Source of the DNA: an uncultured Hormoscilla sp.
GTDB lineage: Bacteria > Cyanobacteriota > Cyanobacteriia > Cyanobacteriales > Desertifilaceae
DNA length: 64,000 nt
NCBI GenBank assembly: GCA_963921275.4
Contig: OZ001293.3
Span: 1,536,001 to 1,600,000, forward strand
Direction of reading: 5' to 3'
Shown here: positions 4,072 to 53,795 of the stretch, piece after piece
Layout of the letters: each line of letters starts with the position of its first letter
Position numbering within the stretch: the first letter of the stretch is position 1
The notes under the pieces: model-generated
Seen by the model: only the letters and a program-made list of their open reading frames with translations
What the model was told of the DNA's origin: nothing
Database searches by the model: none
Translations under genes and position numbers: made by a program

Positions 4072-4258
4072 GTGCGAATGGTGAATTGCGAATGGTGATG
4101 CTATTTGTTGGGCGATCGGGTATAGTGGGAGATGAGACGATCGCGACCTACCGATCGCCGGTCTGCGCTTCATGTAGCAGAAAATACATGGCTCCATAAG
4201 TAAGGAAGAGAGAGAAGATGGCTCTGGAAAATTTTCTGGCAAAAATGTAGAGTTTGAC

Positions 4259-6146
4259 GTGCGATTCGTTCTAGCCTAAGGTGGTCAAACACGGAACGCT
4301 AGTCTAGGAAACTAGAAACTCTAGTACTCATGGGGGTTAGATTCCCGTGCGATGAGTTCCAGCCTAACGTAGTCATATACGGAACGCTGGCCTAGGAAAC
4401 TAGGAACTCTGGTAATCATGGGGGTTTAATTCCCCCTCCCCAGGTACAGGGGTAACCGCGTGAGGTGCTGCGAAGTAACATCATCGTGGTGCCAAGCGAG
4501 GACTCAAATGTAGGATAACTGGCAGCCCAAGCCGGTGACTCTGCTAGGAAAGATGTCCATGGCTAGAACAAGCGAACCTATGTAAACCTCGTTAAACCCA
4601 ACCAGCGAAATAAGGCTTAATGCGCTGGAACAAAAGTTAATGCAGTTAGTGTTAATTAGGGAATTGGCTAACATTGTACCCAAATAACTGCCGGGGAAAA
4701 GTAGGGGCCTAAAGGCATCGTGAAATGATACCAGGGAACGAAGTAACCTCAGCGAGAGGAACGAAGTAACCCCCGTGGTGCTGTCCTCATTTGGACAAGT
4801 CAGATGTGCGTCCGCGTAGCGTGCGCGCAGCGCATAGCGCATGCCCATGAGGGGAGAGATGGCCCGAGAAGCTAATGCCTAGGCGGTGTCTGGAGCATGC
4901 CTTGGTGTCTGGAGCACACCGAGTCCTTCAGGACAAGAGTGTGCGGAAGACGCCAAAGTCCTTCAGGACAAGAGCATGCGGAAGACGCCGGTAATGCCTA
5001 TGGATACGCAGACGCGGGTCGGTGATACTAGTAAACTATTGGTACAAGTAGCTCTAAAATGTCATAAGCCCATTTACAGCGTTAGCGAAAGCGAGTTGAG
5101 GATTGAGGAATATTTAACTGGTAAAACGGAGTGTTAAATGGTGATACTAAAGGTTATCCGGCAGATCCACTCACCAACCAGGAAAGGGGCGGACGTGCAA
5201 GTAGTAAGGGACAATGGGAGTAATCCCTAGTAATCCTACCCGTGAAAGGGGCCTAGTACCCAGTAGCCGTGTGCGGTGAAAGTCGCATGCACGGTTCCGA
5301 AAGGGAGGGTTGTCCCGCGAGGGACAGCTCGACCCCGACTTCTCCCCAGGCGCGGGGGTAACACCGGTTGGAGGTGCTGCGGAGTAACATCGCCGTGGTG
5401 CTAAGCGAGGACTTAAATGTAGGATAGCTGATAGCCTAAATCGGCGACGCCGCGCTTGTTAGATGTCCAAGGTCAGAATAAGCGAATTCATGTAAACCTC
5501 GTTACTACGAACCAGCTCTAAGGCTTAATGCGCTGGCCCAAAAGGGTGAAGTAGTTAGTATTGGTTATGTCAACTGACCAATATCGTGCTCAAAGAACTA
5601 CCGGGGTAGAGTGAAGACCTAAAGACAGCATGAAATGATACTAGGGAACGAAGTAACCTCTCATGAGCTGTCCTCATATGGACAAGTTAGATGTAAAGCG
5701 GAAGCTATGAGGGGAGAGATGGCCCAAGAAGCAAAAGCCTGGGGTAATTCCTATGGATATGCTGACGTGGGTCGGTGATAGATAGAATCTTTGGGTGAAA
5801 GTAGCCTTAATGTTTTAGATCAGGAGAAATCCTAGATAATTAATGTTGGACTAAAGACCTGACCGGGTAAAACTTGGAGAACCTAGTAAATTAGGTAAAT
5901 GTTAGTAAAGAGCGGTTAATATGGGTTGGTACTGTTATCCCCCGCGAACCTTCCGGAGTTAGGCATATATGTAGTCTGAGACTAACCATAAGGGGTGAAA
6001 TTGCATGAAGAAAGGGACAAAGGGAGTAATCCTGAGTAATTCTACCTAGGACAAGGGCTATCTACCCAGTAGCCGTGTGCGGTGAAAGTCGCATGCACGG
6101 TTCCGAAAGGGAGGGTTGGGAGGCGACTCCTAGCTCGACCCCGACT
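4259..6146 (+). mobile_element. ORF-less group II intron (outer member of twintron; 894 nt without the inner intron)
   Basis: Starts GTGCG; D5 AGCCGTGTGCGGTGAAAGTCGCATGCACGGTT near 6071; D6 ends ACCCCGACT; EBS1 GTCAA (5569-5573) pairs with exon TTGAC. Confidence 0.93.
4347..5340 (+). mobile_element. ORF-less group II intron (inner member of twintron; 994 nt)
   Basis: Second GTGCG at 4347; own D5/D6 at about 5265-5340; EBS1 GGGAAT (4659-4664) complements upstream ATTCCC; removal restores ATTCCC|TCTCCCCAGG as in the 48-kb intron. Confidence 0.93.
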
Positions 6147-6557
6147 CCGGATATTGTGGTAAAAGATGGAGACGATCGTCCCATGATGTTTGTCGCTGTC
6201 GTAGCCTCGCAGGTATATAGATCTGAGAAATTGAAAGTTCATTACCTAGAGAATTATCAACAAGTACCTTTTCTGATGTTTGTCAATCTCACACAAGTGA
6301 GAATATATCAATCGGGAAATTATCATCCAGTCATGATATTAAATCCTGGAGAAATTTTTCCAGTTTACGACCCTGACTATCAAAACCATGAGGTTGTTTT
6401 TCAGGATTATTTAGTTGGATTAATGGATGCTTGGTTAAGTGATTTATCTTATCATTGGAAAAGCGAGCATCCTCCTTTTGAAACGCAAGTTAATGAAATC
6501 GGTTTGATTTCTCTGCTAGAAAATGGTTTTCTTGAGAGAATATTGGAGTGGGATTAA

Positions 6558-7160
6558 ATGTCGATATTTTTGTATATTGAAACAAATGGGATCGTGTCTT
6601 TGGCTCAAAAACGAAATCAAGCAATTGAGTCATTGCTGGAAAACTTACCTAATGATGTTCAGTTAATCTTACCCAGCATTTGCTACATGGAAGCGCTATT
6701 TGCTTTTCAACAAGATAAAAAACGGAGAGATATCTTTAAGCAATCTTTGGTTATTGAGATTAATGAAGCAAGACGAAGCAATTTGAACATTTCGCAATTG
6801 TTGATGAATGACTTAGAACAAAGTCAAGTGAAATATAATTTCCTCTCACAACAGTTAAATGATGAATTCATTGAGGCTTTGAGAATTTTGCAATCTCGTC
6901 TGACTTTGATCCATCCTCAACCGGATACGTTAATCAGAACTTTAGTCGCTCCAAATTTGAATAAATCGACAGAAAAGAGAGATGATTTTATTTTGCGGTG
7001 TATTTTAAGACTACGCTCAAAATTATTCGCACCTTAGGAAAACCTTTTTTAGTGAAAATACGAAACAGTTTGGACAGCAACCTGTTCGAGAGGCTTGTCG
7101 AGAAGTTGGCATTACTTATTTTGGGAATATAGAAAATTTGCAAGGTTGGTTGCGATCGTG
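6558..7160 (+). pseudogene. PIN-domain protein, frameshifted near the C-terminus (end approximate)
   Basis: YIETN, ICYMEAL and DDFIL motifs; extra A near 7009 relative to the paralog at 7766. Confidence 0.65.
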
Positions 7161-7303
7161 AGTAGCGTCCCTTGCAACCAATGCTTTACAATATCTAGTA
7201 ACCTTGCCTCCCGATCGCCAGTTCGCCAGGGCAAATGTAGCGTAAGATACATTTGCCAGAGGAAATCATGTATATCAAGTAAGAAGAGAGAGGAGATGAA
7301 TCA

Positions 7304-7765
7304 ATGCTGGACAATTTTATCGCCAAAAATATAGATTTTGACCCGGCGATCGTGGTCAAAGATAAAGACGATCGTCCCATGATGTTTGTCGATGTCAGAT
7401 CTTACCGGACATTTAGCTCTGAAGACTTGACAATCCATCACCTGGAAGATTATCAACAGGTGCTTTTTCTGATGTTTGTCAATCTCAAACAAATCAGAAA
7501 ACAAATCAGAATATATCGGTCTGGTAATTATCAGCCAATAACGATCTTAAAAATAGAAGATATTTTGTCATTTTATGCTTCTAATTATCAAGAATACGAA
7601 GTAATTTTTCAGCATTATTTGGTGAGCTTAGTAGATAGTTGGTTAAGTGACATATCTTATGATTGGAAAAGCCAAAATCATCATTTTGAAACGCAGATTA
7701 ATGAAGTCGGTTTAATTTCTCTGCTAGAAAAAGGTTTTGTTGAGAGAATATGGGAGTGGGATTAA
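7304..7765 (+). CDS. Hypothetical protein, intron-free paralog of the twintron host
   Basis: 153-aa ORF aligning with the spliced 4218-6557 product. Confidence 0.75.
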   Translation: MLDNFIAKNIDFDPAIVVKDKDDRPMMFVDVRSYRTFSSEDLTIHHLEDYQQVLFLMFVNLKQIRKQIRIYRSGNYQPITILKIEDILSFYASNYQEYEVIFQHYLVSLVDSWLSDISYDWKSQNHHFETQINEVGLISLLEKGFVERIWEWD

Positions 7766-8369
7766 ATGTCTGTTTTTTTGTATATTGAAACCAATGGAAT
7801 CATGTCTTTGGCTCAAAAGCGAAATCAAGCAATTGAGTCATTGCTATCAAACTTGCGAGCGGATGTTCAGTTAATCTTACCTAGCATTTGCTACATGGAA
7901 GCGCTATTTGCTTTTCAACAAGATAGAAAACGGAGAGATGAATTCGATCACTCTTTAACTATTGAGATTAATGAGCCGAAGCAATTTGAGCATTTCGCAA
8001 TTGGTGATGAATGGCTTAAAACAAATGGAAGAGAGATATGATTTACTCTCACAACAGTTATATACTGAATTAATTGATGCTTTGAGGGTTTTAGAATCTC
8101 GTTTGACTTTGATACATCCTCAACCTGATACCTTGCGCAGAACTTTGGAGCGTGCCAATTTGAAGAAATTGACAGAAAAGAGAGATGATTTTATTTTGCG
8201 CTGTATTTTAGACCAAGCTCAAAATAATTTTTCCGAAAGGAAAGCCTTTTTTAGTGAAAATACGAAACAGTTTGGACAGCAAACTGTTCGAGAGGCTTGT
8301 GGAGAAGTTGGGATTACTTATTTTGGCAATATAGAAAACTTACAAAGTTGGTTGCAATCTCTTCAGTGA
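7766..8369 (+). pseudogene. PIN-domain protein, frameshifted
   Basis: Split into ORFs 7766-8041 and 7962-8369; about 5 nt missing near 7975 relative to the first copy. Confidence 0.65.
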
Positions 8370-19489: not shown

Positions 19490-20432
19490 GTGCGAATCGT
19501 TTTGGCGTAAGTCTGAAATATGGCGATCGCCGGGCTGGTTAATACCAGCAACTCTGGTCATCATGGGGGTTCAATTCCCCTTCCCCCAGGTACGGGAGTG
19601 ACCGCGTGAGGTGCTGCGGAGTAACATTACCGTGGTGCCTCCCGAGGACAAATGTAGGATAAGGTCTCAGCCCAGAGACCGACGCCGCATGGCTGCGCCA
19701 CGCTGCGCGATCGGAAAGAGGCTCATGGTTAGAGCAAGCGAATCCCTGTAAGCATCGTCATCTTAAACAAGCGAAAAGAGGCTGACACGCTTGGTGCAAA
19801 ATGCGCACGCAGTCCGCGTATCAGTGGTTGCACGTCACTGATATCGTACCCGAAATGACTGCCGGTGTATAGGGGAGACCTAAAAGCCTCGTGAAATGAT
19901 ACCAGGGAACGTTCCGGACAAGAGCGGTGCTGTCCAGATGGACAAGTCAGATGTGCGTCCGCGTAGCGTGCGCGCAGCGCCTAGCGCATGCCCGCGTGGG
20001 GAGGGAGGTCCTAAGAAGCTAATGCCCGGGGTAATGCCTGTGGATATGCAGACGTAGGACGGATATGGTAAAAAGCTCTAGGAGATAGTAGCCCTCTAAA
20101 CGTGCTTAACCAGTGGCAACACTAGGTAGTAATGATGGACTGAAATCCTAACCGGGTAAAAAATTTAGAGGCCCCATACGGGCACCTGTTAGTAAAGAAC
20201 GGTCATAGTGGTTTTCTAGTTCTCCCCCGTAAACCTTCCGGAGTTAGGTACTCAACTAGTTCATGACTGACCATAAAGGGGCTATATTTCATAGGGCAAG
20301 GGACAACGGGAGTAATCCCTAGTAATCCTACCCGTGACAAGGGTTTACCAACCAGTAGCCGTGTGCGGTGAAAGTCGCTCTTCAGGTTCCGAATGGGAGG
20401 ATTGTCCCGCGAGGGACAGCTCGACCCCGACC
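19490..20432 (+). mobile_element. ORF-less group II intron (943 nt), D5 partly degenerate
   Basis: GTGCG start; D5 AGCCGTGTGCGGTGAAAGTCGCTCTTCAGGTT; ends ACCCCGACC; EBS1 TGCACG versus exon CGGGCA (5/6). Confidence 0.9.
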
Positions 20433-48378: not shown

Positions 48379-49243
<865 letters not shown>

Positions 49244-51619: not shown

Positions 51620-53795
51620 GTTGGTGTCTTTAGTTTTTCGCCACCTTTGAGCGGTTGTGTAAGGCATGATCTCGTTGGACGACAAGGAAGAATAACGTCA
51701 GATAGCTGTGCTCATTCGGGAAAGCTCCTATTTCATCAGACTTCCTGGGAAACTTTCCAAGCGTTCGAGTAAGTTAGAGGTTCTCATCCTACAATGTAAC
51801 TCAGGCGCCAATTGGTAGAAAGTCAAGGTCAACTCAAGAGCTCTCTGGAACCTTTGCACTGCCTTATATTCCAGAACTTCCCACTTCAGGAAAAACGCTG
51901 CCAAGCGCTGTTGTGCTTCCTGTGAGCGAGGGCGCAGCGTAAAGAGCATAAGCATCATTTTGAAGAGGATAACGACGCTGTTGTTTGGCTTGGGAGTGAG
52001 TTAGCTGTTGTCCCATCTCATCATGTTCGGGGAGTTGTTGATAGCTCAGATCGTCTTGGAGCCGTCCCACAAGGTGGGTGATGCATCGCTGTTGCTTGGC
52101 CTTGGGCAGATGTTTGGTCATGGCAGCAGGCAAACCTAAAGTCCCATCACTCACAACTACTTCAACAATTTCTGCTTGCAGACCCCATGCCATTAAGTTT
52201 TATATGAAGTTTTCCCAGGCCAGGATGTCAAGACAGTTGGGCAATTTCGTAATGTATAAGTTGGTAGCTGCCATCTGGCCAGACAGCCATCGCCGCCAAA
52301 ATTACACGCTCTTGAGCTTGCCCCATCTGGCGGAGATGTCCTGCAGGGTCTACTTTGGATGGGGTCGAGCCGGGAATCGCTTCCCGACCCTCCCTTGAGG
52401 AACCGGACTTGCGATTTTCACCGCATCCGGCTACTGGGTACTAGGCCCTTTTCATAGGTAGACTTAATAGGAATTACTTCCGTTAGCCCTTGCCGCCTGT
52501 CTTTTCTTCCCTTTCCTGGTTTAGCGAGTGGTTGTTCTGATAACCGTTAGTATCACCATTTTCAAGTCAGTTTTACCAGTTATCCATACCTTATCCTCCA
52601 CTTGCGTTTCGGATTAGTTCCGTGGCTTTTTAGGATTACTCATTCCAGCAGCTTCCTAGTATCACCGACCCACGTCAGCGCTGGCTACCCAGCATCATCT
52701 ACATTACTGTAGATGTTATCCCAGGAATTACCCCGGGCATTCGCTTCTTGGGCCATCCCTCCCCCCGTGGCTTGCGCTTAACATCTAACTTGTCCTGATG
52801 GACAGCACACGAGAGGTTACTTCGTTCCCTAACAACATTTCGCGATACCTTTAGGTCCACACTATACCCCGGGAGCTATTTGAGTACTATATTAGCCAGA
52901 GTCTAAAACTAATACTAGCTACCATTTCCTTTTTAGGCCAGCGCATATAGCCTTATTTCGCTGGTTCCTTATAACGAGGCTTGCACATGTTTGCCTGCTC
53001 TAACCTTGGATATCTTTCCTAGCGGCGTCACCGGCTTAGGCTGCCAGTTATCCTACATTTGAGTCCTCGCTTAGCACCACGATGATGTCGCTTCGTAGCA
53101 CCGAGGACCGGTGTCACCCCCGTACCTGGGGGGAGGGGAATTTAACCCCCATGCGGTCAGAGTTCCCGGCTAATGAAACCGGGCTAGCGTTCCGTGTTTG
53201 ACCACGTTAGGCTAGAACGAATCGCACAAACTCTTCAAGGGTATATTGGATGTCCACCCAGACCCCATCTACAATCAAGATGGGGGGCGTCTTCTCAATC
53301 ACCGATTGACGATGTTTATCCATTTGCTGTTGAGCTTGTAAAGTAATAGGATTGATGGCACTCACAGATAGGACACTGCCCAGAAGAGGATAAAGTGCCT
53401 CTTGCAAGTCCCTGAAGGATAAACCCATCACATACAGACATAACCCCAAGTGAGCGAGATTCTACCTAGTAACCACAGCTTATGTGCGAGCATCACAAAT
53501 TTATTAAATTGACGCCGCAACTTTTTTCAATCGAGGACATTTAGGCATTCTGAGAACAACATTTTCACTCCTAGGGCGAGAAACCGTGATTCTTTCGTAG
53601 AAAGTTGCACCGAAGCGTTAAATTGATATACTGCTGTGGGAGAGCCCTCACTGCAGGCTATCGGGCCAAATCGCCAGAACCATTGAACCATAAGGGTTGA
53701 GCACCAGAATAGCCATTTTTCGATGTGTAATTTAAATGCGCGACAGCTTACTCCCATTAACAAAGGTAAGGTGGCGAAGAATTCCAGACACCAAT
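51620..53795 (-). mobile_element. IS256-like element (~1.3 kb without its intron), degraded
   Basis: 8-bp duplication GATTATTC (51612-51619, 53796-53803); imperfect IRs TTGGTGTCT...TTCGCCACCTT; LIVDG, VVSDG and QRCITH motifs. Confidence 0.85.
52357..53227 (-). mobile_element. ORF-less group II intron (871 nt) inside the IS256-like transposase gene
   Basis: GTGCG start; D5 AGCCGGATGCGGTGAAAATCGCAAGTCCGGTT; ends ACCCCATCC; EBS1 AGACTC pairs GAGTTT; splicing gives YTLEEF|KVDPAGH in frame. Confidence 0.92.

Follow-up and report, generated by a model that had tools for sequence, protein, structure and literature searches.

What leads one group II intron to settle inside another is the question raised by positions 4259-6146 (+) of a 64,000-nt window from the genome of an uncultured Hormoscilla sp. 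(C1:1536001-1600000 on contig C1; the genome comprises 7.03 Mb in 7 contigs); throughout, the window means this whole stretch of DNA. The locus is a twintron, in which an outer group II intron is interrupted within its domain I by an inner one. The interrupting intron very probably belongs to a young lineage of IIB type, devoid of an open reading frame (ORF), whose exon-binding sites (EBSs) are matched to a hairpin in domain I of its sibling introns.

The outer intron (4259..6146, +; 1888 nt in all, or 894 nt once the inner intron is taken out) starts with GTGCGATTCG at 4259 and ends in CCCGACT, while the inner intron (4347..5340, +; 994 nt) starts with GTGCGATGAG at 4347 and ends in ...CTCGACCCCGACT at 5340, with the same terminal CCCGACT. 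Both begin with GTGCG, in agreement with the GUGYG expected at the 5' end of a group II intron, and both carry domains V and VI that exceed the threshold of 40 bits for Rfam RF00029 (inner intron, 5262..5339, +, 47.9 bits; outer intron, 6068..6145, +, 48 bits). The insertion point lies 88 nt into the outer intron, immediately 3' of GGGGGTTAGATTCCC (4332-4346), and after 5340 the outer intron continues with TCTCCCCAGG, the identical sequence that follows the motif in uninterrupted relatives; excision of 4347-5340 joins ...ATTCCC to this sequence exactly as in those relatives, which is the arrangement of a twintron. The boundaries of the outer intron were set by an intron-less paralog of the host gene (7304-7765), that is, by comparison of the gene with and without its intron: deletion of 4259-6146 gives ...NVEFD/PDIVVKDGDDRPMMF (EFD/PDIVVKD, the slash marking the junction), in register with ...NIDFD/PAIVVKDKDDRPMMF (DFD/PAIVVKD) in the paralog, and these introns therefore end in ...GACT with the final T included. 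No reverse transcriptase (RT) ORF is present in 4259-6146, where the longest ORFs, of 66-160 aa, are without RT features, and both introns are ORF-less derivatives of group II introns.

The motif entered by the inner intron (4332..4346, +) is situated in the domain I hairpin of the outer intron and comprises intron-binding site 2 (IBS2), GGGTT, at 4334-4338, a 2-nt spacer at 4339-4340 and IBS1, ATTCCC, at 4341-4346; IBS3 is the T at 5341. The window contains the pattern GGGGGTTNNATTCCC five times, where 100 shuffles predict 0.00, and each occurrence is ~75-90 nt into an intron copy. In addition to the outer intron, these copies are the inner intron, whose own hairpin motif GGGGGTTTAATTCCC (4420..4434, +) is empty and has C at the +1 position (4435); a related intron at 48379..49243 (-), whose empty perfect target (motif 49167-49153, +1 T at 49152) reads GGGTTAAATTCCC followed by T on the minus strand; a related 871-nt intron of a 143-copy subfamily at 52357..53227 (-; motif 53150-53136, +1 C at 53135); and a further related copy at 19490..20432 (+; motif 19565-19579, +1 C at 19580). 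The 48-kb and 52-kb copies also exceed the RF00029 threshold, and the 19-kb copy scores under it. An earlier note on this DNA had placed the inner intron 88 nt into the outer domain I, with the motif common to all five copies, an empty perfect site in the 48-kb copy and +1 C in the inner, 19-kb and 52-kb copies; the junctions, which can be read directly in the sequence, and the positions given above agree with it on every count.

To identify EBS1 and EBS2, domain I of all 409 5' starts was aligned and two loops were tabulated against the 5' flanks. Both loops complement their own 5' flanks in subfamily after subfamily, which identifies them as EBS2 and EBS1. In the inner intron, EBS2 is AACCC (4595..4599, +), which lies in the loop homologous to EBS2 of the other subfamilies and complements GGGTT over 5 bp, and EBS1 is GGGAAT (4659..4664, +), which lies in the loop homologous to the outer EBS1 and complements ATTCCC over 6 bp. 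Similarly, the EBS1 loop of the outer intron, GTCAAC (5569-5574), complements the end of its own exon, TTGAC. EBS3 was sought without prior assumption, by comparing all domain I columns with the first base after the intron in 357 introns. The column at inner position 353 shared the most mutual information with the +1 base (0.397, next-best column 0.157) and did so in a Watson-Crick pattern (T:A 237, T:G 39, A:T 32, G:C 12). Pairing of EBS3 with IBS3, the first 3' exon base, is a hallmark of IIB introns, and such a covarying domain I column is found here family-wide. The outer intron has G at this column (5609) and C as the first base of its 3' exon, whereas the inner intron has A (4699..4699, +), the base that had been proposed as its EBS3 in the earlier note; this A complements, and hence predicts, a +1 T in the target. 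The full target match for EBS2, EBS1 and EBS3 of the inner intron is accordingly GGGTT-NN-ATTCCC followed by T.

The family from which this target is drawn is large. Searches with nhmmer, using one profile of the initial 91 nt and one of the final 95 nt of the introns, located 413 5' ends and 434 3' ends, all of them on contig C1, where all 329 genome occurrences of the strict motif also lie. Pairing of matching 5' and 3' ends as brackets yielded 369 introns with a median length of 871 nt, among them 20 nested pairs, and left 40 5' ends and 38 3' ends as orphans. The genome thus carries ~400 related copies, mostly ORF-less, with a few dominant subfamilies (one with 143 copies, another with ~73). 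Matches to the maturase-specific GIIM domain number 75 in the genome; many lie in open frames of 486-609 aa, and one 609-aa GIIM frame lies inside a twintron host (C1:6622023).

Of the 413 5' ends, 393 extend to the domain I hairpin, and in 14 of these 393 the profile match is directly followed by a new GTGCG start. Independent pattern searches of the whole genome for further insertions at the motif, a check proposed in the earlier note, found 13 junctions with an inner-type 5' end and 15 with any GTGCGA, such that 15 hairpins hold an intron starting exactly after ...TTCCC. The EBS1 loop TTAGGGAATTGG has 16 genome matches, four of which are chance 12-mers in non-intron DNA. There are 13 true copies with EBS1 GGGAAU, and 12 of them begin right where the hairpin motif of another intron ends. 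The one exception (C1:5978581-5979574, 99.8% identical) is located in non-intron DNA, after ATATGAGGGCAAGATTCCT and before G, at a site that matches the consensus target at 14 of 18 positions. The earlier note had described an intron specialised on the ribozyme sequence of its relatives, a view that GGGAAT copies lying mostly in unrelated sites would have contradicted; genome-wide, this single copy is the only one found elsewhere, and the specialisation stands. The two remaining junctions (C1:5258757 and C1:1809083) are occupied by a second, more divergent intron with EBS1 loop GAGAAU and EBS2 loop AAACC, which suggests an older relative of nearly the same specificity. Moreover, 363 of the 375 genome sites matching GGGTTNNATTCCC are in recognised domain I hairpins, from which it follows that base pairing alone steers the lineage into other introns; among the other 12 sites, two are in introns that were degenerate or missed by the profiles and several resemble tRNA T-arms.

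In a consensus fold derived from 51 representatives that are <93% identical to one another, the motif forms a local hairpin, GGGGG-UUNNAUU-CCCYY, followed by a second hairpin. The motif hairpin, whose 5-bp stem (GGGGG/CCCYY) closes a 7-nt loop (UUNNAUU), lies ~74-90 nt into domain I. Across 204 unique introns no variation is seen at five of the seven positions of its loop (1, 2, 5, 6 and 7), the three loop-proximal stem pairs are G-C in 191-201 of these 204, and the rare stem variants are compensatory (GGGAG with CUCC, GAGGG with CCCUY); the second hairpin covaries too, with CUCC accompanied by GGAG in ~74 copies. By this fold, the homing target is a conserved structure of the family's domain I. 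No domain I column was in Watson-Crick covariation with the loop positions in a scan for a partner of the hairpin loop. The Rfam models of domains I-IV gave no match on the 48-kb copy at E <= 1, and for this reason we leave the subdomain of the hairpin (IA or IB) unnamed.

The insertion point falls between nucleotides 3 and 4 of the 3' strand of the hairpin stem, and IBS2 and IBS1 together take up 11 of the 17 nt of the hairpin. Because the insertion splits this strand and the intron-binding sites overlap the hairpin, the outer hairpin would be blocked while the inner intron uses its bases as a 5' exon. It is reasonable to infer from the fold that the outer domain I is restored only once the inner intron has left, and thus that the inner intron splices first. 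Such an order is the general expectation for twintrons in the available part of one review (PMC4424553), and sequential splicing is reported, again in the accessible part of the paper, for a twintron of Trichodesmium, the inner intron of which likewise lies in domain I (PMC4649490).

A different role for the target sequence was considered and dropped. Under it, AUUCCC would be the alpha element and the conserved AGGGAAC, near position 400, its alpha' partner, mimicked by EBS1; six copies have ATTCCT together with AAGGAAC. Against it stand the consensus fold, which makes AGGGAACGAAG the 3' strand of the domain I basal stem, and the hairpin stem, which also uses the CCC. As a separate observation, the target hairpin (for example 4332-4348, or 49167-49151 on the minus strand) resembles a tRNA T-arm, with the variant GGGGGUUCAAUUCCCC in 15 copies, and the junction pattern also matched genuine tRNA T-arms in other bacteria; we take its loop to fit the T-loop-like UUNNA pattern, a putative assignment.

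These data fit a mechanism in which the EBSs of the inner lineage would have become complementary to a hairpin carried by nearly all introns of the family, with EBS2 AACCC pairing with GGGTT, EBS1 GGGAAU with ATTCCC, and EBS3 A with the following T. The intron would then reverse-splice into the 3' strand of the stem, at the exact point where ...ATTCCC ends, presumably by DNA retrohoming rather than by an RNA-level route. Since it has no protein gene, the RT/maturase would have to be borrowed from one of the many ORF-bearing introns of the same genome, which amounts to mobilisation in trans; the proteins with GIIM matches are candidate helpers. A +1 C would reduce insertion. With nearly all perfect 13-nt recognition matches lying in hairpins, the lineage would land almost only in introns and thereby generate twintrons, plausibly accounting for 13 of those in the genome, that of the window among them, with two more made by the older relative. 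The inner intron would splice out first and let the outer hairpin and domain I form.

Copies of the inner lineage are preserved in several states. The 994-nt form is intact in four (the window copy, C1:371227 (-), C1:6223456 and the ectopic C1:5978581), and the three outside the window are 99.3-99.8% identical to the inner intron of the window. Three further 994-nt copies are interrupted: one has received an intron from a 16-copy subfamily, in antisense orientation, another a 1004-nt element, and the third a 1981-nt element resembling an insertion sequence. In addition, there are three copies of a 754-nt form, one of an 895-nt form, and three that are truncated or rearranged. With regard to the interrupting elements themselves, the 1004-nt element has terminal inverted repeats ACTCAAGTTGCGACCTAT...ATAGGTCGCAAC and 83 near-full copies (for example C1:4583043-4584046, -), one of which interrupts an inner-lineage intron beside the EBS1 loop and another the older hairpin-targeting intron at C1:5258757. 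At C1:5193482-5194422, the intron of the 16-copy subfamily is inserted antisense in the hairpin motif of an inner-lineage copy that is itself already nested, which makes three levels of nesting.

The earlier note had further suggested that the lineage is partly self-immune through IBS3. Among sites with perfect IBS2 and IBS1, those with +1 T comprise 146 empty and 8 occupied, and those with +1 C comprise 205 empty and a single occupied one, the host of which has a small deletion at the junction; three more occupied sites have an unresolved 3' junction. One subfamily, with 145 copies, makes up most of the +1 C class, and the site classes are thus non-independent. When only low-copy host classes are considered, occupancy is 8 of 52 for +1 T and 1 of 57 for +1 C (Fisher p = 0.013, in a test that treats related copies as independent), and the hairpins of the inner family itself, a motif variant (GGGGGTTTAATTCCC) with +1 C and 13 copies in the genome, are all empty. 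Both results give self-immunity modest support, and a +1 C probably lowers insertion at these sites, as an EBS3 mismatch does in IIB introns. The suggestion is weakened in that +1 C is confounded with host subfamily and three high-copy host classes have no insertion in any of 251 sites, 102 of which are perfect with +1 T. High-copy classes being empty whatever their +1 base, this base is not what chiefly governs occupancy, on which host subfamily or its age has the greater bearing.

Could the twintrons instead descend from a single ancestral insertion, having spread as a composite unit or by duplication, with no targeting shown? Two host pairs of the same subfamily are both occupied (for example C1:4581401/C1:4584451), and the host type ...CGTTATGAGGGTTAGATTCCC is occupied in 4 of 4 copies, as composite spread would have it. 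We nevertheless judge this very improbable from a comparison of hosts with hosts and inner introns with inner introns in the ten twintrons that have definable junctions. The hosts (88 + 300 nt) are 65-87% identical, apart from one pair at 99% and one group of three at 88-92%, and amount to at least seven lineages, whereas the first 180 nt of the inner intron are 97-100% identical among uninterrupted copies. Moreover, the 14 hosts with an immediate GTGCG start have differing 5' exons, one copy stands at a look-alike site outside any intron, and even the 99%-alike pair, C1:4581401 and C1:4584451, carries inner introns of different forms (754 nt and 994 nt). Hosts that have diverged around inner copies that are near-identical mean that the insertions are independent, and this is the pattern expected if recent, separate insertions entered older, dispersed hosts. 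An artefact of assembly, or a chance juxtaposition of two repeats, is scarcely credible as a source of the nesting, given 15 like junctions in different contexts on one 6.88-Mb contig, the exact restoration of host sequence on removal of the inner intron, and a motif count in the window of 5 where 0.00 are expected. What speaks for it is the behavior of short reads: in four DNA runs, the contigs over 4100-6300 break at the intron borders, with one piece ending at 4313 and another beginning exactly at 4347, and 4346/4347 and 5340/5341 are bridged by none of the contig pieces listed.

Besides these breaks, several observations weigh against an active lineage aimed at its siblings' hairpin. The site is far from saturated, with the 146 perfect +1 T sites noted above empty, and pairing alone therefore fails to predict occupancy. 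Slow movement, extinction of the lineage or further limiting features may explain this. Many copies are damaged, with three interrupted and three truncated or rearranged among the 13 in twintrons, and no hairpin junctions were found in 60 related genomes, four congeners included, although many of these assemblies are fragmented and repeats may be missing from them. Such data are consistent with a once-targeted lineage that is now a dead relic, its perfect sites being empty for want of mobilisation and not because of site features. The vacancy of all 251 sites in three high-copy and presumably young host classes, the damage to six of the 13 nested copies, and the absence of the lineage from the congeners examined all favor it. 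Recent movement is indicated, on the other hand, by the four intact 994-nt copies, which are 99.3-100% identical, and by the three 754-nt copies, which are 96-100% alike in domain I, and low-copy hosts are still split by their +1 base; we therefore hold a dead relic to be rather unlikely, while a lineage targeted to the domain I hairpin remains our preferred explanation. As for its route, reverse splicing into RNA is a known reaction of group II introns, and insertion into transcripts of the host introns, followed by reverse transcription and recombination, would suit a target that is an exposed hairpin of an abundant RNA. Twintron-forming introns of Thermosynechococcus elongatus have been shown experimentally to use DNA retrohoming, according to the part of the report available (PMC2882425), and we give the RNA-level route a small chance, although nothing in the present data tells the two apart.

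The forms of the inner lineage differ in the bodies to which its targeting domain is joined. Domain I ends at about position 402, where the consensus fold pairs 5' UUCGUUC/GUUCC with AGGGAACGAAG (~395-405), and the inner-lineage domain I (1-402) is attached to three different bodies of domains II-VI, in the 994-, 754- and 895-nt forms. Positions 1-402 of the two best-preserved 754-nt copies are 98.5% identical to the window copy, and positions 1-410 of the 895-nt form are 100% identical to it, whereas the bodies are only ~73-82% alike. The closest 994-type body found to the 754-nt body is ~73.5% identical, and in intron +1436761 the 754-nt body has a counterpart of 97.4% identity that is joined to another domain I with other EBSs; the 895-nt body shares 90% identity with one other intron and ~82% with a 927-nt subfamily. 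One domain I on several bodies indicates that the targeting domain has been recombined onto other ribozyme bodies. Combinations of domain I and body can be seen on C1 at 6622111, 4581308 (-), 2265897 and 1428685. A more far-reaching view, which we put forward tentatively and with appreciable doubt, is that the lineage is a hyperparasite of the intron family, with domain I as its portable targeting unit, and that it acts as a brake on its competitors. Specificity would pass from one chassis to another by recombination, perhaps within twintrons, at the conserved 3' strand of the basal stem of domain I; occupied hosts would be crippled until the inner intron leaves, through which the lineage could restrain competitors; and +1 C variants and fast-expanding subfamilies would be the escapers.

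To assess the distribution of this arrangement, related and unrelated genomes were surveyed. The intron superfamily is also present in four other species of the genus, with many matches in three and one match in the fourth (one assembly in 6 contigs, the others in 70-570 contigs), and among these four species there is no match >80% identical to the inner domain I. Across 185,579 species genomes, one for each species, a scan that may leave out records of, or very near, the genome of the window itself, the twintron junction GGGTTNNATTCCCGTGCGA was found at 23 loci. Five are in tRNA arrays, where the match is made by the T-arm and the acceptor stem, and the remaining loci are without intron context and are taken as chance matches. 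The intron load of the genome, ~400, is well above the published counts for Arthrospira platensis, given as 101 and "at least 150" in the available parts of two papers, one of which calls that genome the richest in its survey.

Introns that enter other introns are not in themselves new; those of Methanosarcina acetivorans reportedly target intron ORFs, to go by the title of a 2003 study by Dai and Zimmerly. The comparisons that follow refer to the accessible portions of the papers cited. M. acetivorans, an archaeal system, is an established case of group II introns that home into others of their kind; it differs from ours in nesting up to five deep and in exon-less contexts (PMC4424553). The closest parallel is T. 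elongatus, where ORF-less F3 (TeI3) introns within F1 (TeI4) introns form five twintrons, and where Mohr, Ghanem and Lambowitz (2010) made the same argument from host versus inner divergence (PMC2882425). The two systems share an ORF-less intron of a cyanobacterium that, in the course of evolution, came to target a site conserved among related mobile introns, and inner copies that are near-identical while hosts are diverged; mobilisation in trans by the protein of a related intron has been shown in T. elongatus and would be required here (PMC2882425). Repeated independent insertion at one conserved site, which characterises the F3-type introns, is found in our genome as well. In T. elongatus, however, the F3 introns enter domain IV, where the first and second ATGs of the protein ORF flank the site (PMC2882425), whereas here the target is not in domain IV or a protein ORF but is a conserved hairpin 74-90 nt into domain I, with 15 occupied of ~390 and most hosts ORF-less.

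Similarly, Tery_4732 of Trichodesmium erythraeum, also a cyanobacterial group II twintron, has its inner intron in domain I of a IIB host, and the 5' consensus of that host, GUGCGAUUC, resembles the sequence seen here; unlike here, it is a single locus with ORF-bearing introns, and the accessible text does not describe it as a repeatedly targeting lineage (PMC4649490). Plant mitochondrial introns also copy into related introns, including sdh3i349g2-twin in domain I, and Zumkeller, Gerke and Knoop (2020) write of a "hypermobile intron invading itself"; in the portion available, those insertions are mostly in domain IV and are one-off ectopic events in organelles, unlike a lineage adapted to a conserved domain I hairpin (PMC7049729). 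In published full text, covered mostly as titles and abstract openings and exclusive of subscription journals, we found no lineage homing to a conserved domain I hairpin. Intron-into-intron homing is itself known, and it is the use of a conserved domain I ribozyme hairpin as the homing site that appears to be new.

Insertion into other introns is one proposed way for group II introns to multiply without killing their host, since harmless sites are thereby created and reused. Domain IV is the dispensable part of a group II intron. In the published cases, as far as their accessible text goes, the homing site is in domain IV or in a protein ORF, whereas here it is a structural hairpin of the ribozyme itself. 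Such a target should be hard to lose by mutation, should leave the host intron disabled until its guest departs, and offers ~390 potential sites in one genome. The genome thus presents a natural system for the study of ordered splicing, of competition among selfish RNAs, and of the evolution of target specificity, including the exchange of a whole domain I.

The same family also forms twintrons of another kind. The 871-nt intron of the 143-copy subfamily is nested in a copy of itself, ~768 nt in, after AAGTAATTCCTATTAAGTCT and before ACCTATGAAAAG, and the resulting units of 1741-1742 nt are found at five places on C1 (1325884, 4743593 (-), 5180205, 6031315 (-) and 6411996 (-)). The 52-kb copy of the window, a member of this subfamily, has the self-nesting site empty, between 52460 and 52459 (-).

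The gene that hosts the twintron of the window is a small ORF of no known family, to which a Pfam search matched none; its first exon ends at 4258 and its second is at 6147..6557 (+). Directly 3' of it lies a gene with a PIN_12 domain (6558-7037, E = 1.6e-8), and this pair is repeated in tandem at 7304-8369, the duplicated pair looking like a two-gene cassette of toxin-antitoxin type. In the second copy, the region equivalent to the PIN_12 gene consists of two overlapping ORFs (7766-8041 and 7962-8369) and has a frameshifted appearance. An A-run just 5' of the intron has one base fewer in the host gene than in the paralog (4190-4258 versus 7290-7352), which puts the ATG of the host gene out of frame with the remainder, and this reflects either a pseudogene or a homopolymer error in the assembly.

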